This document shows positions 1 to 29,525 of a stretch of 32,000 bases of DNA, piece by piece (position 1 is the first letter of the stretch; the number at the start of each line of letters is the position of its first letter). The stretch lies in the NCBI GenBank assembly GCA_963705375.1, contig OY970071.1, forward strand, positions 600,001 through 632,000. The letters run 5' to 3'. The position numbers were made by a program, and so were the translations under genes. This stretch comes from Candidatus Saccharimonadota bacterium. Its GTDB lineage: Archaea > Micrarchaeota > Micrarchaeia > Micrarchaeales > Micrarchaeaceae. Below the pieces are notes generated by a model. The model was given only the letters and a program-made list of their open reading frames with translations, was not told the origin of the DNA and made no database searches.

Positions 1-3000
1 TGACCGTGTGCAGTATAGGCAGGTAGCTTATGCTCTTGAGCATGGCTGTGAAGTTGAATGCGGAAGTGGTGCCTATTCTTGCCGGATTGTTGGGCATTAG
101 CAAGTACGTGATGCCGTTTATTATCAGCGATGCAGAGCTAGACCCTATCGAACTCGCAGTAATTTCAAAAGATGTGCCGTTGAGCGAAACAGTCTTGGAA
201 TTCGGCACGGACATGTTCGATATCTCATAGCATGATGACGTTATCTTGGTAACAACAGGGCCTATGGGTCCGCCTGCGCCACTGCCGCCACTTGAACTCC
301 AGCCCGTGCTGCTGCCTCCTGATGAGGGCTGCACAGAGAATAGGCCAACAATAGGGTCACCGTTGAAGCTGAAAGAGACACTGCACGGAGCTGTGGTCGA
401 AACACTTGTCGGAGTTATCGCAGACCATGTCGCACCGCCATCCTTTGATATGAACGGTGTCGGTGCAGAGGTTACGCTGCACGAGTAATAAAGCACCGCA
501 TTCACGGTTATGTCGTTTGATGATGCAGGATTCACATACATAACCTCCACTGCAGAATGGCCAGGGTTGGAAGGGCTGCTCGATGTGATGTTCTGCACCA
601 CCACGTTGACGCTTTCAACTGCGGTGTTTGTGGTAGTGAATGTGAAGGATTGACCCAATATGTTTGTGGTTACCGGAACGTTGTTTGTTACATTCACGCC
701 TAATGAATTAGCAGGAGCGCCATTGAGGAGTATTGTGGTTTGTGATGTTTGCGGCACAAACACAACAATCTGAGCAGCTGTGACCTGGTTTGCGGAGACC
801 GCTGTTGTGGCCGAGTCTTTGACACCTATGCAGTAGTATGTGCTGATTGTTGGAGAGACAACGAACGTCGTTGACTGTCCAGAGACTCCCGATGCCGTAT
901 TTGCCACAGTAGTGTCAGATGAACATGTTGAGGATGAACCTGAGAACAGCGTTACTGCGAAGTTCGGTGCGCCGCCTGTCCAATTTGCGGTTATCGTATT
1001 GGACTGGCCATTGGCTATTGTTGCGCCAGTTGTTGTCAATGATGAGAGTGTGTTGTACATTGTCCACGATGTTGACGGTATTGAATTGAATGATGTGGAA
1101 ACTGAATCACTCATCACGAAGTTTCCGGTCTCTGTGCCTATCTCGTTAGAGGCAGTTGTCCATGTTGATGATAATGATGTGCCTGTCTGGTTAGGCATTG
1201 TAATTGTGTTTGTTATCGAACCTGTGTTCGTTATGATCGCGTTTCCTATGTAGCTCGGCGTCCCTCCTGTTATTGTTGCCGTGATGGTCTGAGTCTGGCC
1301 GACATCGACCTTCGCACTTGTCGGCGTTGGCTGTGATATCGATGGTGCGGCGTTGACCACAATCTGGACGGCAAAGAACTGGTTTGCTGACATAGCTGTG
1401 GTTGCGCTGTCCTTCATTCCGATGCAGTAGTATGTGCTACTGGTTGGAGAGGCGACGAATGTCGTTGAATGCCCCGAGATGCCTGATGCAGTATTAGCGA
1501 CAGTGGTGTCAGATGAACATGTCGAGGATGAACCTGAGAACAGCGTTACTGCGAAGTTCGGCGTGCCACCTGTCCAACTTACAGGTATTGTGTAGCTCTG
1601 GCCGTTGTCGATTGTTCCGCCGGACGTTGAGAGAGACGACATCAGCGAATTGACACCGAATGTGTTGGTCGTTGATGCAGAGCCACTTACGCCGTCTGTA
1701 ACTGTGAACTTGATCTGAGGCGCGCCTAGAGCGTTGTTCGTCTGAGGCACCCGGAATGTGAATGTCGCAGGCGAAGTCGTGATCATTAGTGAGTTCGCGA
1801 TCACGTTGCCATTGATCGTGTTGGTGATGTAGAAGTTCGCCGTGTATGGAGATGTGCCGCCTGTCCATGAACCCGTTATTGTCTCGTATTGCGACTGATC
1901 TGCGATGTTGTTCGATGACCAGGCGCTTGTGATTGATATTGCGGGGTTTACTACTATTTGAACTGCTGTGACCTGATTCGCAGTGTTGGCCACGGATGCG
2001 CTGTCATTTACGCCTATACAATAATATGTGCTGCTGGATGGGGAGACAACGAATGTCGTTGATTGGTCCGAGACGCCTGATGCAGTATTAGCGACAGTGG
2101 TGTCAGATGAACATGTCGAGGATGAACCTGAGAACAGTGTTACTGCGAAGTTCGGCGTGCCACCCGTCCAACTTACAGGTATAGTGTAGCTCTGGCCGTT
2201 GTCGATTGTTCCGCCGGACGTTGAGAGAGACGACATCAGCGAATTGACACCGAATGTGTTGGTCGTTGATGCAGAGCCACTTACGCCGTCTGTAACTGTG
2301 AACTTGATCTGAGGCGCGCCTAGAGCGTTGTTCGTCTGAGGTACCTGGAATGTGAATGTAGCCGGTGACGTCGCTGCTGAGACTACACCGGAAATTACGT
2401 TGCCATTGATCGTGTTGGTGATGTAGAAGTTCGCCGTGTATGGAGATGTGCCGCCTGTCCATGAACCCGTTATTGTCTCGTATTGCGACTGATCTGCGAT
2501 GTTGTTCGATGACCAGGCGCTTGTGATTGATATTGCGGGGTTTACTACTATTTGAACTGCTGTGACCTGATTCGCAGTGTTGGCCACGGATGCGCTGTCA
2601 TTTACGCCTATACAATAATATGTGCTGCTGGATGGGGAGACAACGAATGTCGTTGATTGGTCCGAGACGCCTGATGCAGTATTAGCGACAGTGGTGTCAG
2701 ATGAACATGTCGAGGATGAACCTGAGAACAGTGTTACTGCGAAGTTCGGCGTGCCACCCGTCCAACTTACAGGTATAGTGTAGCTCTGGCCGTTGTCGAT
2801 TGTTCCTCCGGACGTTGAGAGAGACGACATCAGCGAATTGACACCGAATGTGTTGGTCGTTGATGCAGAGCCACTTACGCCGTCTGTAACTGTGAACTTG
2901 ATCTGAGGCGCGCCTAGAGCGTTGTTCGTCTGAGGTACCTGGAATGTGAATGTAGCCGGTGACGTCGCTGCTGAGACTACACCGGAAATTACGTTGCCAT

Positions 3001-5287
3001 TGATCGTGTTGGTGATGTAGAAGTTCGCCGTGTATGGAGATGTGCCGCCTGTCCATGAACCCGTTATTGTCTCGTATTGCGACTGATCTGCGATGTTGTT
3101 CGATGACCAGGCGCTTGTGATTGATATTGCAGGATCGACTACATAAGCGCCTGAGTAGATAGAGTTGTATGTGTTCGGAGTGGCATCAGTTACTGTAACG
3201 CTCATTTTCTCTGGAGAGTTAGAGACGTCGACGCTTGTGAGCGGGAAGGTGAGTGTGTTAGTAGATAGCGCGTTTGTGAACATGTAATTTTTCACTATCG
3301 CATTCGAGATGGAGTTGACCACGAGCCAGTTGTAGGTGTAGGGACCGTTGCCGTTGCTCGCCGTTGCTGTGAAAGTCTCATACTGACCCACGTCCGCCGT
3401 GGGACTGCTCGGACCTGAGGTGATGGCGACCGATGGTGCTGTGATGAGTGGACCGTAGAAATCTAGAGGCATATTCCCATCGGGCTGGAAGACACGAATT
3501 CTCGCCCATTGAAGGAATAGACCTGGATTGCCTGCACCTATTGCACTCATCCCGATAGGGCTCGCAGTCCCCCCACTTCCAGAAGGATATTCGAAATATG
3601 CATTAGCGTTCGGAGCTTCGAGATCCTGCGCACTGGCAAATACATAGTTTGCAGGAAGGTAGAAGGTATATAGCGAGGGAGAACCTTGCGTGTATGTGGT
3701 AGGGGCATTGGCTTCAGATCCAACCCCATTTGCATAGAGGACAAAGGTGTTGCTGGCTGCTTGATCAGCGTAGTCGATTGCTGCTCCGTTTATGCCATTT
3801 GATCCGATATAACCAAAGGCCTCAAGATGACCAGTTGTCGCAGTTGGGACAGTTACCTCCATCTCCAGAAGCTGCGTCCAGTCTAAGCCGAAGTTTGAAG
3901 TGGTTAGGATATTCCCACTTGTCATTATGACTCCGTTGTCTTGCGTCACTCCGCTTGCAACCCATCCGCTCGGCGTTGAAGTCCCTGCAAAGTTTTGGTA
4001 GAGCGTCGGGAACACTAGTGCGCCGTTGTCATACTGCGCATAGGCGCTTGAGAGCACAGGAGACTCTCCCCACGAGCCTATGCTGTTGAAGTTGTTTGTA
4101 GATGTAGAGTAGAATCCAAAGTATATGCTGTTGTCCACAAGCCAACCACTCTCTGGAATCGTGCACCAGATGCCGAGAATGTTCGAGGTGTATAGGTTGG
4201 AGGTCTGTTGTTCGTTGAGCACGTTGCCAGCAAGCCAGCAGTCATATGGAGAGCCAGATACGCCGTCGAATACAACGAAGTTCTGCATGTTGCTTGCTTC
4301 ACGGCTTTGATATGCACCTGCATCGAAGTGAAACTGGGCTTGCGTGTTTGCATCCATTGCTGTGGTGCTAGTGGATGACAAGTATGCTGGCATATAATAA
4401 AGGACGCCTTTTGGAATGATGACGTTGGGTGTGTTTGAAAACAAGGATATTACATAGACTGCTCCGACGTTCCCATCTCCTACATAGAGGGTGTTGGTGG
4501 TGGAATTGATGTAGAGAGCTCCTAAGGTATATGAGCCAGTAGTTATCACAGTCCCTATGGAATTGTCGATGGTGTTGATGGAGTAGATGGTGCCTGTGCC
4601 CCACGCGCCTGTGTAGAGGATGTTGGTGGCGGGATCGAAAGAGAGGGAGCCTATGGCCGGTGCAACAGTAGCTATCGCAGTGCCTACGGAATTGTCGATG
4701 GTGTTTATTGGGTAGATGTTGCCTGAGCCCAAATCTCCTGCGTAGAGGATGTTGGTGGCGGGATCGAAAGAGAGAGCAAATATTGCTCCTGCTCCAGTAG
4801 TTATTGTAGGTCCTATAGAATTGTCTATGGTGTTTATGGTGTTGACAGTACCTGACAAATCACCTACGTAGAGGGTGTTGGTGGCGGGATTGACGTAGAG
4901 AGCCAATGTCATTCCAGCCCCAGTGGTTATCGTGGTGCCTATGGAATTGTCTATTGTGTTGATTGGGTAGACGTCACCTGAATAAAAATCTCCTGCGTAA
5001 AGGGTGTTGGTGGCAGAATCGAAGGCGAGAGCACCTATGCTCGATGCACTAGTCGCTATTGTGGCGCCTATGGAATTGTCGATGAGGTTAATGGGATAGA
5101 TGTTGCCCGAGCTCCAATCACCTACGTAGAGGGTGTTGGTGGTTCTGTCGAAGGCGAGGGAGCGAATATTAGATGAGCCAGTGACAAATACATTTGTTGG
5201 AATTGGAGCACTGCACACCAGATGCAAGAAGCTGGACAGCAGCATAAGCATAAGCAGCAGAGACGCCTTTCCGATCTTTGTTGTCAT
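1..5287 (-). CDS. Very large secreted surface/adhesin-like protein, 3'-partial (at least 1762 codons, continues past left edge)
   Basis: Hand translation of the minus strand from ATG 5287-5285 stays open down to position 2. It is not in the ORF track because there is no stop in the window. The N-terminus MTTKIGKASLLLMLMLLSSFLHLVCSA looks like a signal peptide. About six ~42-aa repeats follow (FDxxTNTLYxGDxxSGxxYxINxIDNSxG), resembling YVTN-type beta-propeller repeats. Next comes a ~300-aa central domain I cannot assign, then repeated ~95-100-aa Ig/PKD-like modules (GGTSPYT and SWTGGTPNF motifs). Confidence 0.85.
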   Translation of the reverse strand, partial: MTTKIGKASLLLMLMLLSSFLHLVCSAPIPTNVFVTGSSNIRSLAFDRTTNTLYVGDWSSGNIYPINLIDNSIGATIATSASSIGALAFDSATNTLYAGDFYSGDVYPINTIDNSIGTTITTGAGMTLALYVNPATNTLYVGDLSGTVNTINTIDNSIGPTITTGAGAIFALSFDPATNILYAGDLGSGNIYPINTIDNSVGTAIATVAPAIGSLSFDPATNILYTGAWGTGTIYSINTIDNSIGTVITTGSYTLGALYINSTTNTLYVGDGNVGAVYVISLFSNTPNVIIPKGVLYYMPAYLSSTSTTAMDANTQAQFHFDAGAYQSREASNMQNFVVFDGVSGSPYDCWLAGNVLNEQQTSNLYTSNILGIWCTIPESGWLVDNSIYFGFYSTSTNNFNSIGSWGESPVLSSAYAQYDNGALVFPTLYQNFAGTSTPSGWVASGVTQDNGVIMTSGNILTTSNFGLDWTQLLEMEVTVPTATTGHLEAFGYIGSNGINGAAIDYADQAASNTFVLYANGVGSEANAPTTYTQGSPSLYTFYLPANYVFASAQDLEAPNANAYFEYPSGSGGTASPIGMSAIGAGNPGLFLQWARIRVFQPDGNMPLDFYGPLITAPSVAITSGPSSPTADVGQYETFTATASNGNGPYTYNWLVVNSISNAIVKNYMFTNALSTNTLTFPLTSVDVSNSPEKMSVTVTDATPNTYNSIYSGAYVVDPAISITSAWSSNNIADQSQYETITGSWTGGTSPYTANFYITNTINGNVISGVVSAATSPATFTFQVPQTNNALGAPQIKFTVTDGVSGSASTTNTFGVNSLMSSLSTSGGTIDNGQSYTIPVSWTGGTPNFAVTLFSGSSSTCSSDTTVANTASGVSDQSTTFVVSPSSSTYYCIGVNDSASVANTANQVTAVQIVVNPAISITSAWSSNNIADQSQYETITGSWTGGTSPYTANFYITNTINGNVISGVVSAATSPATFTFQVPQTNNALGAPQIKFTVTDGVSGSASTTNTFGVNSLMSSLSTSGGTIDNGQSYTIPVSWTGGTPNFAVTLFSGSSSTCSSDTTVANTASGVSDQSTTFVVSPSSSTYYCIGVNDSASVANTANQVTAVQIVVNPAISITSAWSSNNIADQSQYETITGSWTGGTSPYTANFYITNTINGNVIANSLMITTSPATFTFRVPQTNNALGAPQIKFTVTDGVSGSASTTNTFGVNSLMSSLSTSGGTIDNGQSYTIPVSWTGGTPNFAVTLFSGSSSTCSSDTTVANTASGISGHSTTFVASPTSSTYYCIGMKDSATTAMSANQFFAVQIVVNAAPSISQPTPTSAKVDVGQTQTITATITGGTPSYIGNAIITNTGSITNTITMPNQTGTSLSSTWTTASNEIGTETGNFVMSDSVSTSFNSIPSTSWTMYNTLSSLTTTGATIANGQSNTITANWTGGAPNFAVTLFSGSSSTCSSDTTVANTASGVSGQSTTFVVSPTISTYYCIGVKDSATTAVSANQVTAAQIVVFVPQTSQTTILLNGAPANSLGVNVTNNVPVTTNILGQSFTFTTTNTAVESVNVVVQNITSSSPSNPGHSAVEVMYVNPASSNDITVNAVLYYSCSVTSAPTPFISKDGGATWSAITPTSVSTTAPCSVSFSFNGDPIVGLFSVQPSSGGSSTGWSSSGGSGAGGPIGPVVTKITSSCYEISNMSVPNSKTVSLNGTSFEITASSIGSSSASLIINGITYLLMPNNPARIGTTSAFNFTAMLKSISYLPILHTV
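1348..3130 (-). repeat. Three tandem copies of a 594-bp (198-codon) unit inside the surface-protein gene
   Basis: ORF-track shadows at 1509-1868, 2103-2462 and 2697-3056 are spaced exactly 594 nt apart. Units 1942-2535 and 2536-3129 are essentially identical; I saw one mismatch, ccgccgg at ~2206 versus cctccgg at ~2800. Unit 1348-1941 diverges at its left ~130 nt and around 1741-1800. A weaker fourth copy lies at ~754-1347. Confidence 0.9.
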
Positions 5288-7141: not shown

Positions 7142-7831
7142 ATGATGCAACAGAAAATAGTAACAGTCAAGCTTCGTAAAGGCGGTGAAGAGTTCGAGCT
7201 CCTTGTTGATGCAGGCATGGCATACGAGTACGTGACAGGCAAGCGCAGCGATCCTCTAAGCGTGCTGCAGACAGAAGAAGTGTTCAAGGATGCACGAAAG
7301 AACGAAAGGCAGAACATCGAGAAGATAAAGAAGGTGTTCGGAACAACTGACATAGTGAAGATAGCAGAAGTCATACTAAAGGAGGGGGATGTCCCGATGA
7401 CAGCTGAGCAGCGCAGCCAGCAGACAGAGGAGAAGCGCAAGCAGATAGTAGACATAATATCGAAGAATTCGATAGATCCAAGGACGAATGCACCAAATCC
7501 GCCAATGCGTATCGAAAACGCGATGAAAGAAGCGAAGGTGAACATAGATCCGTTCAAGAATTCCGGCGAGCAGGTAGAAGATATCGTCAAGAAGATAAGC
7601 ATCATAATGCCGATAAAGTTTGCAACAGTAAGGATGACCGTGACAGTGCCTCCGGCATTCGCAAACCGCGCCTTCGGTACGCTAAAGAAGTTCGGCATGA
7701 AGTCGGAACGCTGGCTTCCAGATGGCAGCCTGCAAGCGTCGCTCGAATTCCCTGCGGGAATGCAGAGTGACTTCTTGGAGCGCATAAACAACGCAACACA
7801 AGGGCAAGCAGACGTGAAGATAGAAAAGTGA
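7142..7831 (+). CDS. SBDS-family ribosome maturation protein (Sdo1)
   Basis: The N-terminal [14 protein letters not shown]...VFKDARKNE pattern and the position between psmA and rrp4 are typical of the archaeal superoperon. Confidence 0.85.
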
Positions 7832-7838
7832 TTGTACG
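7828..7838 (+). promoter_or_regulatory. SD-like GTGAT + TGT spacer + ACG (putative rrp4 initiation site), overlapping the SBDS stop TGA 7829-7831
   Basis: The 12-mer AGTGATTGTACG at 7827-7838 is identical to 9977-9988. The same geometry with ATG or GTG occurs at several other starts in the window. Confidence 0.5.
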
Positions 7839-8459
7839 AAAAGACTCATAGTACCTGGAGAACTTATAACATCGAAACCGATAAGGCTGGACAATTCATT
7901 CGTCAAGGATGGTTCCACCTATTCGAAGACGTTAGGAATCTACGATGACCGCGAAATAGTGCCATTAGAGGGCACATGGAAAGCCAGTGTTGGAGATTCT
8001 ATCGTAGGCATAGTCAGCGAGGCAAGGACGAATGTCTGTTTTATTGATTTGTCGTCATTTGTGCGCGGGCTTGTGGTGCTGCGCAAGTACGAAACCGGAC
8101 CAGAAAAGGGCAGCGTCGTAAGCGCCATAGTGAAAGACGTTGAGAACAAAAAGACCGCGATACTGGAAGGGACACGAGAGCTGCACGGCGGCGTGTTGAT
8201 AAAGGTAAAGCCTGCAAAGATACCAAGGATCATAGGAAAGAGCAACACGATGATCAACCAGATATCAAGCTTGACGGCTTCGCACATCGTCGTGGGCATG
8301 AACGGGCTCATATGGATCAATGGCGGGAACAGCAAACTTGCGATCGCTGCGATTGAGCGCATAGGCGAGGAAGCCCATGTACCAGGCCTAACGATGCGCA
8401 TCAAGGAGATGCTCGAGAAAGAGAAAGATAATATTGATATTGAAAAGGGAATTATATGA
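7836..8459 (+). CDS. rrp4: Exosome complex RNA-binding protein Rrp4 (N-terminal + S1 + KH domains), apparent non-canonical ACG start
   Basis: The ORF track starts at GTG 7959. The same frame is open from 7824 and encodes TKRLIVPGELITSKPIRLDNSFVKDGSTYSKTLGIYDDREIVPLEG. As I recall it, this matches the conserved Rrp4 N-terminal domain (A. fulgidus MRKIVLPGDLL...VIPLKG). There is no ATG, GTG or TTG in frame between 7824 and 7958. GTGAT at 7828-7832 plus TGT places ACG 7836 at the start position. Confidence 0.75.
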   Translation, partial: TKRLIVPGELITSKPIRLDNSFVKDGSTYSKTLGIYDDREIVPLEGTWKASVGDSIVGIVSEARTNVCFIDLSSFVRGLVVLRKYETGPEKGSVVSAIVKDVENKKTAILEGTRELHGGVLIKVKPAKIPRIIGKSNTMINQISSLTASHIVVGMNGLIWINGGNSKLAIAAIERIGEEAHVPGLTMRIKEMLEKEKDNIDIEKGII

Positions 8460-9196
8460 AAAGCAACAAACCGGTCCTGATAGTGAACAACAAAAGGCTG
8501 GACGGAAGGGATTTCGACGAACTTAGGCCAATAAACATAAAGGCAGGAGTCATCGAGAATGCTAGCGGATCCGCTTACGTGGAATGGGGCAACAACAAGA
8601 TACTGGCCGCGGTTTACGGGCCAAAGGAAGTCACTCCAAGGCACATGACAGACCCTTCGAAGGCGATAATAAAATGCAGATACACCATGGCACCGTTCTC
8701 GAGCCTTTCTGAGCACGGCAGAAGCGGGCCTTCGCGAAGATCGACGGAGATATCGAAGGTGGCAAAAGAGGTGTTCGAGAACGTCGTGTTCCTCAACGAG
8801 TTCCCGGGCAGCGAGATAGACATATTCATAGAGGTGCTTCAAGGAGACGGCGGCACGCGTGCCGCAGGCATAACAGCAGCATCTGTGGCGCTGGCCAGTG
8901 CAGGCATACCGATGAGGGACCTTGTGTATGCGGTGTCAGTGGGCAGAATAGACGACAAGCTCGCTCTGGACCTCAACATGATAGAGGACAACTACTCGGA
9001 TAGCGACATGCCGATAGCTGTCGCCCCAAGAGACAACGACATAGTGCTTCTGCAGATGGATGGAGGTCTCAGCAGGGAGCAGCTGTCAAGATGCATCTCG
9101 ATCGTGTTGAATGCAGGCAAGGACATATCCAAGAAGCAGGTCGAAGCGCTGAAGGAAAGCTATGAAAGTGTGTCAAAGAAATATGAGGTTAGATGA
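8456..9196 (+). CDS. rrp41: Exosome complex exonuclease Rrp41 (RNase PH-like)
   Basis: LDGRDFDELRPINIKAGVIENASGSAYVEWGNNKILAAVYGPKE is RNase PH-domain sequence. The ATGA overlap with rrp4 fits operon coupling. Confidence 0.92.
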   Translation: MKSNKPVLIVNNKRLDGRDFDELRPINIKAGVIENASGSAYVEWGNNKILAAVYGPKEVTPRHMTDPSKAIIKCRYTMAPFSSLSEHGRSGPSRRSTEISKVAKEVFENVVFLNEFPGSEIDIFIEVLQGDGGTRAAGITAASVALASAGIPMRDLVYAVSVGRIDDKLALDLNMIEDNYSDSDMPIAVAPRDNDIVLLQMDGGLSREQLSRCISIVLNAGKDISKKQVEALKESYESVSKKYEVR

Positions 9197-9981
9197 AAAT
9201 GGATAGCATAGATATGATAAGAGTCAATTATGTGAAGAGTCTGATCGCCAAGAACACGCGTGAAGACAGCCGTGGCTTTTACGACTTCAGGAAAATAAGC
9301 ATCAAGACCGGCACAATGGGAAACGCGGAGGGATCGGCGCAAGTTGATCTCGGCGCCACAAGAGTGATTGCAGGGGTCAAGATAAGCCTAGAGAAGCCAA
9401 TGGAAGACACACCAGACCAGGGCAACATGACTGTCGCTGCGGAGCTTCTGCCGCTCGCAAGTTCAAAATATGAGACAGGCCCTCCAAGCCCTGACGCGAT
9501 AGAGCTTTCGAGAGTTGTTGACAGGGGCATACGCGCCGGCAACTGCATAGACCTTAAGAGTCTGTTCATAGAGCCTGAAAAGGCATGGGGCGTCTACATA
9601 GATGCGTATGTGCTTAACTATGGAGGGAACCTGTTCGATGCGTGCGAGATTGCAGCCATGAGCGCGCTGCTCAACTCCAAGATGCCGATATACGAGGATA
9701 GCAAGGTAATACGCGAGAACCTTAAGCAAAAGCTCAAGATAGACAACATAGTCACATCCACCACTTTTGCAAAAGTAGACGGCATGATACTGCTGGACCC
9801 TTCTAGTGACGAAGAGACTGCATGTGATGCAAGACTCACAATAGCGACGGATGGAAGCAGCGTGAGGGCTATGCAGAAGGGCTTAGGAGGCAGCTTCAAG
9901 GTCAAGGAGGTGGAGGAGCTCGTCGACATATCATTTAATAAGCATGTAGAACTAAAATCTCTAATAGAGAGAAGAGAGTGA
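9193..9981 (+). CDS. rrp42: Exosome complex component Rrp42 (RNase PH-like, inactive subunit)
   Basis: REDSRGFYDFRKISIKTGTMGNAEGSAQVDLGATRVIAGVK, the ATGA overlap with rrp41, and GAGGT upstream. Confidence 0.9.
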   Translation: MKMDSIDMIRVNYVKSLIAKNTREDSRGFYDFRKISIKTGTMGNAEGSAQVDLGATRVIAGVKISLEKPMEDTPDQGNMTVAAELLPLASSKYETGPPSPDAIELSRVVDRGIRAGNCIDLKSLFIEPEKAWGVYIDAYVLNYGGNLFDACEIAAMSALLNSKMPIYEDSKVIRENLKQKLKIDNIVTSTTFAKVDGMILLDPSSDEETACDARLTIATDGSSVRAMQKGLGGSFKVKEVEELVDISFNKHVELKSLIERRE

Positions 9982-9988
9982 TTGTACG
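9978..9988 (+). promoter_or_regulatory. SD-like GTGAT + TGT spacer + ACG (putative rpl37ae initiation site), overlapping the rrp42 stop TGA 9979-9981
   Basis: Identical 12-mer to 7827-7838. Confidence 0.5.
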
Positions 9989-10222
9989 GCAAATGCTAGC
10001 ATAAGATACGGCACAATAATACGGAAGCGTTTCGCTCAGATAAAGAAGGATAAGCGCACGCTCTACAAATGCAACGCATGCGGGAAGAGCGCGGTGCGAA
10101 GGATAGGCACTTCTATATGGAGGTGCAAGCACTGCAGCACCACGTACGCAGGCGGCGCGTACACGATGAAGACCCCTGCGGGCGAGGCCGCGAAGAGGCT
10201 CATAGAGGGCATAAAGCAGTAG
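9986..10222 (+). CDS. rpl37ae: Ribosomal protein L37Ae (zinc ribbon), apparent non-canonical ACG start
   Basis: The frame is open from 9968 to 10222 and encodes TANASIRYGTIIRKRFAQIKKDKRTLYKCNACGKSAVRRIGTSIWRCKHCSTTYAGGAYTMKTPAGEAAKRLIEGIKQ, which has the CxxC...CxxC and RYG..IRK signatures of L37Ae. The first canonical in-frame start is a GTG after the first CxxC, which would truncate the zinc ribbon. The gene is absent from the ORF track. Confidence 0.75.
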   Translation, partial: TANASIRYGTIIRKRFAQIKKDKRTLYKCNACGKSAVRRIGTSIWRCKHCSTTYAGGAYTMKTPAGEAAKRLIEGIKQ

Positions 10223-10257: not shown

Positions 10258-10389
10258 ATGGCATACGTATGCGCACACTGCGGCAAGCAGATAAAGCAGT
10301 TTGACAATTTCGTCAGATGCACGTACTGCGGATTTAGGATACTGGTGAAGAAGAGACCGAACATAGCGAAGGAAATATCGACAGATTGA
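10258..10389 (+). CDS. rpoP: DNA-directed RNA polymerase subunit P (Rpo12), 43 aa
   Basis: MAYVCAHCGKQIKQFDNFVRCTYCGFRILVKKRPNIAKEISTD has the CxxC...CxxC zinc ribbon followed by RILxKxR. GTGAT 10250-10254 plus 3 nt precedes the ATG. The gene is below the ORF-track size cutoff. Confidence 0.85.
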   Translation: MAYVCAHCGKQIKQFDNFVRCTYCGFRILVKKRPNIAKEISTD

Positions 10390-10421
10390 TTATACGCGAT
10401 AAAAAGAAGAGGCAGGTGAAT

Positions 10422-10841
10422 ATGAAAGTTCTTTTCGTTTGCGGGGACAACATGGGAAGGAGCCAGGCAGCAGAAGCTCTGTTCAATCTGCATGCAAAGA
10501 CAAGCAAGGCAGAGAGCTGCGCTGGAAAGCTCGAGATCAAAGAGAACACCACACTTTCCGACATCAAGAATAACAAAAAAGTCGAGGATGTTGTCAAGAT
10601 ACTGAAGAAAGACTATAACATAGACATAAGCAAGAAGATGGCCAAGCCATTCAGCATGGATATGACGAATAACGCAGACATTATAATTTCGATGTGCTCT
10701 GAAGGCGAGTGCCTCAACATACCAAAAGCAGAGCACTGGGATGTTCCTTACCTTCCCCCACTAGATTTCAAGGGTAAAGAGGAGGCAATCAAGGCCCTCG
10801 ACGAAAAGATCAAGGATTTGTTAAAGAGGATAGGAGACTAA
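10422..10841 (+). CDS. Low-molecular-weight phosphotyrosine phosphatase / ArsC-like protein, paralog 1
   Basis: MKVLFVCGDNMGRSQAAE contains the CX5R(S) P-loop. GGTGA lies upstream of ATG 10422. The ORF-track TTG 10386 is probably too early. Confidence 0.8.
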   Translation: MKVLFVCGDNMGRSQAAEALFNLHAKTSKAESCAGKLEIKENTTLSDIKNNKKVEDVVKILKKDYNIDISKKMAKPFSMDMTNNADIIISMCSEGECLNIPKAEHWDVPYLPPLDFKGKEEAIKALDEKIKDLLKRIGD

Positions 10842-10894
10842 GCTCTTGCAGAAACCGACCGTTTCAAAAGCCTTAGAGGCCAAGAAAGGATATA

Positions 10895-11311
10895 ATGAGG
10901 GTTCTTTTTGTTTGCGGCGATAATTTAGGTAGAAGCCAGGTTGCCGAGGCGCTGTTTAACCTGCACGCGAAAAGAAGCAAGGCAGAGAGCTGCGCTGGCA
11001 AACCTGAAGTCAAAGAAAGAAGATTGCTTGTGGATGTAAGGCACAAGTCTGTAGAAGAGTGCCTGGAGATAATGAAAAAAGATTATGGCATAGACATAAG
11101 CAGGAAAGTCTCAAAGCCTTTCAGCGCTGAAATGGTAAATGATGCAGACCGTGTAGTAATTCTCTGCTCTGGTTCGGAATGCCCAGACGTACCAGGCGCA
11201 GAGCATTGGGACATACCAAAGCTGTCGCCTCTTGACTTACATGGAAAACAAGAGGTTATCAAGACCATTGGCACTAAGGTCAATGAGCTACTGAACAGAA
11301 TCGGGGACTGA
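10895..11311 (+). CDS. Low-molecular-weight phosphotyrosine phosphatase / ArsC-like protein, paralog 2
   Basis: MRVLFVCGDNLGRSQVAE contains the CX5R(S) loop. The protein is collinear with the upstream paralog over its whole length. Confidence 0.8.
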   Translation: MRVLFVCGDNLGRSQVAEALFNLHAKRSKAESCAGKPEVKERRLLVDVRHKSVEECLEIMKKDYGIDISRKVSKPFSAEMVNDADRVVILCSGSECPDVPGAEHWDIPKLSPLDLHGKQEVIKTIGTKVNELLNRIGD

Positions 11312-15403: not shown

Positions 15404-16069
15404 ATGGAGAGCACGACAGTACAAAGGAATATTCAGAAGATCGCAGGTTTTGATTTTGTAATGGTCAGAACAGGTACAGGCGTGTGCCGGGTATCAGATA
15501 GGGCATTGACCAGAAGTGATTTGGAGAACCTGTCGAGTTCGATAGCGAACACTGACTTGCATGTTGCTAATTATAAGGAAGTGGCAATAATGTACCGCTC
15601 AAGCCTCCGTGCAGGGCAAGTTTCTTCGTTTGAACACGCGTTTGAAGAAGGCGTTGCGACTTGTGACATAGGGTTCGAGATGGACGAAGCAGGGCCGTAT
15701 AAGATCCTTGACCATGACATCAAGACACTGTTGGAAGAACAACAAAGATGGTTCAACCTAACAATTAGGGACGTAGACGACATAGTAAAAAACAAACTAT
15801 TCGGCGAAGCAGAGTCAGACAGGGTTCTGCTGCATTCTGGAAAAGGCCATGTGACCCTTAGAACGATGAGCATTGGCGGCAATGCTTATCTCGAAATTTC
15901 TGCAGGATCCATTTTCAAAGGGGATGATAGAGGTCACGTTATTTTGCTTGGAAATACAGAAGAAGCAGCAGCACGGCAAGGCAACAAGGAGATGCCAACG
16001 AACAACTATGAAGACCTTATGAGGAGAGACCCTGACACCTTCATAGGCAACCACAAATATTGCAGATAA
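15404..16069 (+). CDS. Hypothetical protein (P2), 221 aa, N-terminal domain paralogous to P1
   Basis: Complete ORF with a TATTTAAAAAATAAA box at 15375-15389. See the alignment with P1. Confidence 0.6.
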   Translation: MESTTVQRNIQKIAGFDFVMVRTGTGVCRVSDRALTRSDLENLSSSIANTDLHVANYKEVAIMYRSSLRAGQVSSFEHAFEEGVATCDIGFEMDEAGPYKILDHDIKTLLEEQQRWFNLTIRDVDDIVKNKLFGEAESDRVLLHSGKGHVTLRTMSIGGNAYLEISAGSIFKGDDRGHVILLGNTEEAAARQGNKEMPTNNYEDLMRRDPDTFIGNHKYCR

Positions 16070-29424: not shown

Positions 29425-29525
29425 GGGCTCGTAGCTCAGCTTGGACAGAGCGGCAACCTTCTAAGGTGCTCAAAATGCATCAAGGAGTAAGTTGATGGTC
29501 GTGGGTTCAAATCCCACCGGGCCCG
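29425..29525 (+). tRNA. tRNA-Arg (anticodon UCU) with a ~26-nt intron at the canonical 37/38 position (about 29464-29489)
   Basis: Folded by hand. Acceptor GGGCTCG/CGGGCCC with one G-U pair. D arm GCTC/GAGC. Anticodon stem GCAAC/GTTGA with a G-A mismatch at 27-43. Loop CTTCTA|intron|A. T arm GTGGG-TTCAAAT-CCCAC. Discriminator G. An ATATATA box at 29396-29402 lies ~25 nt upstream. Intron borders are ambiguous by 1-2 nt. Confidence 0.85.

Follow-up and report, generated by a model that had tools for sequence, protein, structure and literature searches.

Conserved ACG codons at the start positions of rrp4 and rpl37ae in a clade of Micrarchaeota

Translation in archaea is assumed to begin at AUG, GUG or UUG, and this assumption is built into gene callers and into surveys of start codons. 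Non-AUG initiation is in itself a known kind of event: ACG and CUG are used as near-cognate starts in eukaryotic and viral mRNAs, and AUU, AUA and CUG in a few bacterial genes. ACG start codons are also found in plant chloroplasts and mitochondria, where C-to-U RNA editing turns them into AUG. For archaea, termination–reinitiation coupling has been demonstrated, with a variable contribution of the Shine–Dalgarno (SD) motif (2019, PMC6728339), and harringtonine profiling of Haloferax volcanii placed about 30% of putative alternative initiation sites at near-cognate codons, which the study set aside (PMC7261190). A survey of start-codon turnover, covering 61,358 ancestral AUG starts, reported switches only to GUG, UUG, CUG and AUU (Belinky et al. 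2017, PMC5622118); because the survey used annotated starts, ACG was invisible to it. Here we analyze a stretch of 32,000 nucleotides from a genome of the Micrarchaeota (assembly GCA_963705375.1, contig OY970071.1, positions 600,001 to 632,000 of the forward strand; hereafter the window), in which ACG occupies the start position of rrp4, the gene of an exosome subunit, and that of rpl37ae, the gene of ribosomal protein L37Ae.

The rrp4 start position and its conservation

An original prediction, made from the letters of the window, had claimed that the N-terminal domain of Rrp4 is encoded upstream of any canonical start codon and that ACG sits at the initiation position. All its statements about the sequence are correct. 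The rrp4 frame is open from 7824, after the TAG at 7821-7823, and reads K S D C T(ACG 7836) K R L I V P G E L. Upstream the frame is closed and holds no canonical in-frame start, and no ATG, GTG or TTG occurs in it before GTG 7959, which lies 45 codons past the upstream stop. The TGA stop of the preceding gene, SBDS, is embedded at 7829-7831 in the SD-like motif of rrp4, inside the 12-mer AGTGATTGTACG (7827-7838), and ACG stands 4 nt past GTGA. The elements of this junction are as follows.

7142-7831, plus strand: SBDS (Pfam SBDS_N, SBDS_domain_II and SBDS_C; open reading frame (ORF) list)
7828-7832, plus strand: SD-like GTGAT of rrp4, 3 nt 5' of ACG and overlapping the SBDS stop
7836-7838, plus strand: ACG, the proposed initiation codon of rrp4
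7836-7958, plus strand: segment coding for the Rrp4 N-terminal domain, omitted by canonical-start gene calls
7836-8459, plus strand: putative full-length rrp4 coding sequence, 207 codons and stop (NCBIfam Rrp4, Pfam KH_6, PDB 2BA0)

The presence of the Rrp4 N-terminal domain at 7836-7958 is confirmed by an NCBIfam model, by the structure PDB 2BA0 and by ortholog alignments. Residues 2-196 of the protein match positions 2-221 of the 221 positions of the NCBIfam Rrp4 model (NF003181; E=1.6e-36), with a score of 125.6 bits; that this lies below the curated equivalog cut-off of 200 is no surprise in a divergent DPANN sequence. Rrp4 of A. fulgidus (PDB 2BA0_A) aligns residue 2 to residue 2, with query residues 2-203 against chain residues 2-223 (E=5e-30). 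The N-terminal, S1 and KH domains lie in one chain (Pfam KH_6 at residues 119-166), and the gene occupies the superoperon position of rrp4; it is on this domain order, the structure match and the operon context that the assignment to the Rrp4 family rests. The N-terminal motif xKRLIVPGE of the window protein is common to the family, Micrarchaeota Rrp4 orthologs starting with M-[KR]-x-[ILF]-V-x-P-G-[ED]; the N-terminus in the window is TKRLIVPGELITSKPIRLDN, against MKRLVVPGELIAAKPVRLDN at the start of P0008. The ortholog and model alignments thus put ACG 7836 in the Met1 column of Rrp4, and the comparative evidence supports the claim that this codon is the initiation position of full-length rrp4. 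The further expectation that standard gene callers would truncate the gene is borne out by the database proteins of relatives, which are 156-192 aa long and begin at differing internal codons.

The junction is identical, and ACG is present, in L003, an independent Logan assembly that is near-identical to the window. ACG is also found in six more lineages, with 62-75% Rrp4 identity to the window (L167; L164/L165/L084; L004; L001/L002/L085/L086; L168; L169/L170). The seven ACG lineages come from Logan (ERR11594402), JGI (3300035696 and 3300033405), ENA (ERZ27256877, ERZ27256913 and ERZ25039480) and GTDB (CAISDH01). Comparison of related genomes, by which the original prediction could be judged, thus gives ACG in seven lineages, and ATG at the same junction in L087 and in the outgroup L005. 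All more distant Micrarchaeota have ATG at the rrp4 start codon, most of them with a GTGA(T)-type junction. In a neighbor-joining tree L087 falls inside the ACG clade (89% bootstrap) and L005 is the outgroup (76%). Since L087 is nested within the ACG clade, ACG is probably ancestral to this clade, and the ATG of L087 is probably a reversion.

What is retained among the ACG lineages is the junction A(A/G)GTGATT-nn-ACG, where nn is GT, CT, AA or TG, and the codons after ACG vary. GTGATT itself does not vary among the relatives compared. Three loci in two lineages (L001, L004 and L086) have TAA in frame and directly 5' of ACG, which leaves no room there for an in-frame upstream extension or for a fusion with SBDS. 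L168 and L169, which are not sisters, each have TTG directly 5' of ACG (GAT TTG ACG), apparently a canonical start that arose independently in each and came to the rescue of the gene.

Within the ACG clade, the ratio of nonsynonymous to synonymous substitution (dN/dS, Nei-Gojobori) is 0.06-0.34 for rrp4 codons 2-41 and 0.11-0.22 for the rest of the gene, with synonymous sites near saturation (pairwise proportion of synonymous differences, pS, 0.4-0.8 among the ACG lineages). Of the 46 four-fold columns in which the amino acid is conserved, just 6, that of ACG among them, show no variation at the third base. Because purifying selection on codons 2-41 is as strong as in the rest of rrp4, these patterns of substitution indicate that the N-terminal domain of Rrp4 is under purifying selection and is translated.

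A second ACG junction, its ribosome-binding motif and other lineages

The window carries an exosome superoperon with the order psmA-SBDS-rrp4-rrp41-rrp42-rpl37ae-rpoP (Pfam matches and ORF list), and the same gene order is found in L001, L171 and L172. An ATGA overlap joins the rrp4 stop and the rrp41 ATG, and another is found at rrp41/rrp42, so that the operon is probably tightly coupled. Besides SBDS and rrp4, its features are these.

Start at ATG 6422: psmA
8456-9196, plus strand: rrp41 (RNase PH; Pfam RNase_PH and RNase_PH_C)
9193-9981, plus strand: rrp42 (RNase PH; Pfam)
9977-9988, plus strand: second AGTGATTGTACG 12-mer, comprising GTGAT at 9978-9982, the rrp42 stop, a 4-nt spacer and ACG 9986
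9986-10222, plus strand: rpl37ae (ribosomal protein L37Ae), 78 codons, proposed ACG start at 9986 (Pfam Ribosomal_L37ae)
Start at 10258: rpoP (Pfam neighbor match)

The 12-mer AGTGATTGTACG has two exact matches in the window, where 0.13 are expected, and no match with one mismatch. At its second occurrence the stop is the TGA of rrp42 (9979-9981), and ACG 9986 opens a frame of 78 codons, TANASIRYGTIIRKRFAQIKKDKRTLYKCNACGK...IKQ*, which is L37Ae (Pfam Ribosomal_L37ae, E=4.8e-23). Orthologs of L37Ae start with MANASIRYG, and ACG 9986 aligns with their Met1. The first canonical in-frame start is GTG 10094, the use of which would cost the protein half its zinc ribbon, including the first CxxC; gene callers give L37Ae 43-60 aa in L171 and L172. 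ACG is kept at this position in L004, L164, L001 and L087, the outgroup L005 has ATG, and L169 has ATG on an indel-ridden contig. Codon 2 is Ala with synonymous GCA/GCG changes, which implies that translation of L37Ae begins at or before codon 2, and ACG is the only near-cognate codon at or 5' of that position. For codons 2-36 the ratio of nonsynonymous to synonymous differences (pN/pS) is 0.20-0.45. The contig of L169, which is of long-read style, deserves a remark of its own: in its region 3121-4653 indels fragment rrp41, rrp42 and rpl37ae, and both its L37Ae ATG and its rrp4 TTG-ACG need caution.

At both genes the codon is one base from AUG, lies in the same column as the orthologous ATG and follows the junction A(A/G)GTGATTnn. 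ATG and ACG swap independently at the two genes, L087 having ATG at rrp4 and ACG at L37Ae, and L169 having TTG-ACG at rrp4 and ATG at L37Ae. The alignments thus confirm that ACG lies at the initiation position of rrp4, and they show the like for a second gene, rpl37ae.

The motif that precedes both codons is common to other genes of the window. An ATG or GTG stands 3 nt past GTGAT at 9 of the 61 sites of this motif, where triplet frequencies predict about 2, and with any other spacer the count is 0-2. The recurrence of the GTGA(T)-to-start spacing at canonical starts, on which the prediction had drawn, holds for psmA (6422), rpoP (10258), hisS (18059) and the genes at 15404, 16462, 14286 and 23177. 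Among these, psmA carries the variant GGTGAACTG-ATG, and the sites with GTGAT and exactly 3 nt include rpoP, 15404, 16462, hisS, 14286 and 23177 (GGTGATTGT-ATG). GTGAT plus 3 nt is thus a working ribosome-binding site of this genome, and ACG is found at that spacing at two sites, 7836 and 9986. A tally of the codons at this spacing over all loci was too noisy, as GTGAT also occurs within genes. At both ACG junctions stop and start are close, the spacer being 4 nt, with TGA inside GTGAT and the SD inside the upstream ORF, and this architecture is kept in relatives.

Non-canonical codons at start positions recur in other archaeal lineages. The start column of L37Ae, over about 98 distinct junctions of which two distant sequences are misaligned, holds ATG in 75, TTG in 9, ACG in 6, GTG in 5 and CTG in 1. 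The sixth ACG is that of L155 (4681), from a different Micrarchaeota group; the CTG, in L156 (2189) of that group, comes directly after an in-frame TAG, and the relatives L148 and L162 have TTG. At the rrp4 start column ATA is found in L130 (1145), behind GGTG, and in L142 (2498), behind GGAGGTG, and neither has a canonical start within 12 codons 5' of the PGE motif. In euryarchaeal metagenome-assembled genomes (MAGs; fen_29, bog_38 and MFD bins), the junction of rpoP (Pfam Zn_ribbon_RPAB4) is cGAGGTGATTTC-ACG GTT TAT AAA TGT, with ACG 3 nt past GAGGTGAT, at the following loci.

L072, 4951-5099: rpoP with ACG
L077, 4962: rpoP with ACG
L079, 4957: rpoP with ACG
L074, 4942: rpoP with ACG
L075, 4942: rpoP with ACG

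In L072 and L077 the TGA stop of L37Ae lies inside the SD, 4 nt before ACG, and there is no canonical in-frame start; in L079, L074 and L075 an in-frame TTG, 7 codons upstream, overlaps the L37Ae stop. TTG takes the place of ACG in the sister loci L081, L073 and L078. All but one of the start-position ACG, CTG or ATA codons in these other lineages stand behind an SD-like motif, and the non-canonical codons seen are mostly transition neighbors of ATG, namely ACG, by far the most frequent, and ATA; CTG was seen once. Scans of the window and of two 20-kb contigs of the clade (L171 and L172) gave no credible non-canonical starts beyond rrp4 and rpl37ae, the other matches all lying in non-coding frames.

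A separate case is a Micrarchaeota protein of 115 aa in L046 (4890-5237), conserved but of unknown function, which has GGTGAT-gtt-ACG where its homologs have GGTGAT-nnn-ATG; as this ACG is seen in a single lineage, an assembly error is possible.

Proposed mechanism and rival explanations

We consider it likely that ACG 7836 is the start of full-length Rrp4, with its N-terminal, S1 and KH domains, and that ACG 9986 is the start of L37Ae. From the position of ACG, its conservation, the purifying selection on the codons that follow and the lack of an alternative start, we infer a mechanism of the following kind. The genes SBDS-rrp4-rrp41-rrp42-rpl37ae would be translated by coupled ribosomes, and the ribosome or small subunit terminating at UGA would be held by the pairing of GUGAU with AUCAC near the 3' end of 16S rRNA. 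This pairing would put ACG in the P site, where the initiator Met-tRNA (anticodon CAU) could pair at codon positions 1 and 3 and tolerate a central C-A mismatch. Both proteins would then begin with Met, as MKRLIVPGE... and MANASIRYG..., and the N-terminal peptides expected from such a start would be MKRLIVPGELITSK and (M)ANASIR. The weakness of the codon would be offset by strong positioning and by a high local supply of ribosomes. In evolutionary terms, a single transition from ATG to ACG would have sufficed; its effect in these small-population symbionts was probably mild enough, near-neutral or slightly deleterious, for it to become fixed, and now and then a lineage may have gone back to ATG (L087) or gained a TTG next to ACG as a backup (L168 and L169). 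The dependence of rrp4 and L37Ae translation on upstream termination is putative.

Several considerations weigh against initiation at ACG. In E. coli reporter assays ACG initiates only very weakly, and it is outside the accepted start codons of translation table 11. L37Ae, a ribosomal protein, is expected to need efficient translation, so that a weak start would be odd unless ACG works well here or is edited. The anti-SD pairing rests on general archaeal knowledge, the 3' end of the 16S rRNA lying outside the window. Finally, about 70 kb of clade sequence gave no other ACG starts, which makes the phenomenon site-specific and not a genome-wide relaxation. An unusual initiator tRNA was not found in the window: ARAGORN found none, and Rfam gave one intron-containing, non-initiator tRNA.

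The main rival explanation is editing of the mRNA from C to U at 7837 and 9987, by which ACG would become AUG and initiation would be canonical. It would account for ACG lying exactly at the ATG position of relatives in two genes of one clade, one of them a ribosomal protein gene expected to need an efficient start, and conservation of all three bases of ACG would be expected of an edit site no less than of a near-cognate start. However, the sites have no motif in common beyond the ordinary SD GTGATT, the two bases that precede ACG and the codons that follow being variable, and no conserved structure was found around the junction (RNAalifold: 2 pairs, -0.13 kcal/mol). Moreover, the presence of ACG, CTG and ATA at starts in unrelated archaeal lineages points to a general property of the ribosome and not to a clade-specific enzyme, and we know of no mRNA C-to-U editing described in archaea. 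Editing is therefore disfavored, on account of this recurrence and of the lack of a shared motif beyond the SD, and we regard it as quite improbable. It could also be seen as one form of a broader, clade-specific alteration in the making or reading of start codons; the other form would be a changed initiation apparatus (aIF1 or initiator tRNA) with enough efficiency on ACG to serve a ribosomal protein gene. The thought of such an alteration, which taken as a whole we consider unlikely, is prompted by the switch of two genes in the same ancestor.

Initiation at ACG, our preferred reading, also has to be weighed against initiation further downstream, at a near-cognate codon such as ATA 7848 or at GTG 7959, by which a few residues or the whole N-terminal domain would be lost. 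GTG 7959 is the first canonical start and the choice of gene callers, but it has no SD-like motif upstream and is not conserved, and in relatives the callers picked other internal codons. ATA or ATT is found at codon 4 or 5 in all ACG lineages, but these codons are equally common in ATG lineages, where they encode a conserved Ile. Purifying selection on codons 2-41, equal to that on the rest of the gene, implies that this segment is translated, and in solved archaeal exosome structures the N-terminal domain of Rrp4 anchors the protein to the Rrp41/Rrp42 ring. L37Ae would likewise lose its first zinc-ribbon CxxC if begun at GTG 10094. We give a downstream start only a slim chance.

As an alternative to ACG, the original prediction had offered a start at GTG 7828 and a -1 shift on CGAAAAG, with the product peptide MIVRKRLIVPGE; this GTG lies in the +1 frame, and the frameshift would be of the programmed kind. 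The sequence GTG ATT GTA CGA AAA G in the window would indeed let tRNA-Lys re-pair one base back, but the slippery site is not conserved, CGAAAAG being replaced by CGAGAAAG in L001 and by CGAAGAGG in L084/L164. Nothing comparable is present at the rpl37ae junction (GTACGGCAAATG), no conserved downstream structure was detected, and ACG itself, which a frameshift does not require, is invariant; we find this alternative hardly credible. Fusion of SBDS with Rrp4 by a +1 or -2 shift at the stop was considered as well and rejected, given the in-frame TAA between the SBDS stop and ACG in L001 and L004. Although a single T-to-C difference separates ACG from ATG, a sequencing or assembly error or a decaying pseudogene has next to no probability, being already refuted on comparative grounds by the occurrence of ACG in seven diverged lineages and in assemblies of independent origin that represent at least six samples or projects, by its presence twice in the window within an identical 12-mer and by purifying selection on both rrp4 and L37Ae.

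Outside the superoperon genes, three regions of the window may be recorded. Positions 744-3287 and 4471-5182 contain about 4 tandem copies of a 594-bp unit and about 6 copies of a 129-bp unit; their minus-strand translation resembles repeats of the beta-propeller type (...NTLYVGD...), there is no long open frame across them, and three 119-aa ORFs in this repeat region (1509-3056) have about 45 open codons upstream of each ATG. Two tandem paralogs of 151 and 138 aa, with the motif MKVLFVCGDNMGRSQ / MRVLFVCGDNLGRSQ, lie at 10386-11311. The tRNA recognized by Rfam (51 bits) and missed by ARAGORN lies at 29425-29525; an insertion of 27 nt in the region of its anticodon loop is probably an intron, and its anticodon is read from the alignment as UCU (Arg).

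Comparison with known systems

In the clade described here, two essential genes, one for an exosome subunit and one for a ribosomal protein, lack a canonical start across a long evolutionary span. If ACG initiation is true, SD-anchored, termination-coupled sites in archaea would tolerate near-cognate codons, which bears on the fidelity of start selection in organisms with eukaryote-like initiation factors. It would also mean that the universal markers Rrp4, L37Ae and RpoP are truncated or missed in MAGs of DPANN and other archaea. If the codons were edited instead, this would amount to mRNA editing in archaea. To our knowledge, and within a limited search of the literature, a conserved ACG start on core archaeal genes with the stop inside the SD at the junction has not been described.

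The ACG codons of rrp4 and rpl37ae resemble known near-cognate starts in being one base off AUG, in having their position fixed by initiation signals, in being conserved across species and, presumably, in being read as Met. They differ from these in that the organism is an archaeon, and in that the signal is an SD-like motif containing the upstream stop, and not scanning with a Kozak context. A further difference is that they belong to core housekeeping genes with no canonical alternative start and that ACG is absent from table 11. With plant organelle editing they share a genomic ACG at the ATG position of relatives, in essential genes. Unlike the situation in those organelles, the sites described here have no editing-specific cis motif in common, and we know of no editing machinery or cDNA evidence for archaea.

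Like the gene pairs for which reinitiation was demonstrated (PMC6728339), the ACG junctions have stop and restart codons a few nt apart and the SD inside the upstream ORF, in an operon that also contains ATGA overlaps. Unlike ours, those pairs restart at ATG, GTG or TTG, and ACG is outside the range of that study. The pattern found here is also like that of start-codon turnover (PMC5622118), with a sub-optimal start at a strong SD-like motif followed, in some lineages, by reversion to ATG or by rescue through a neighboring start.

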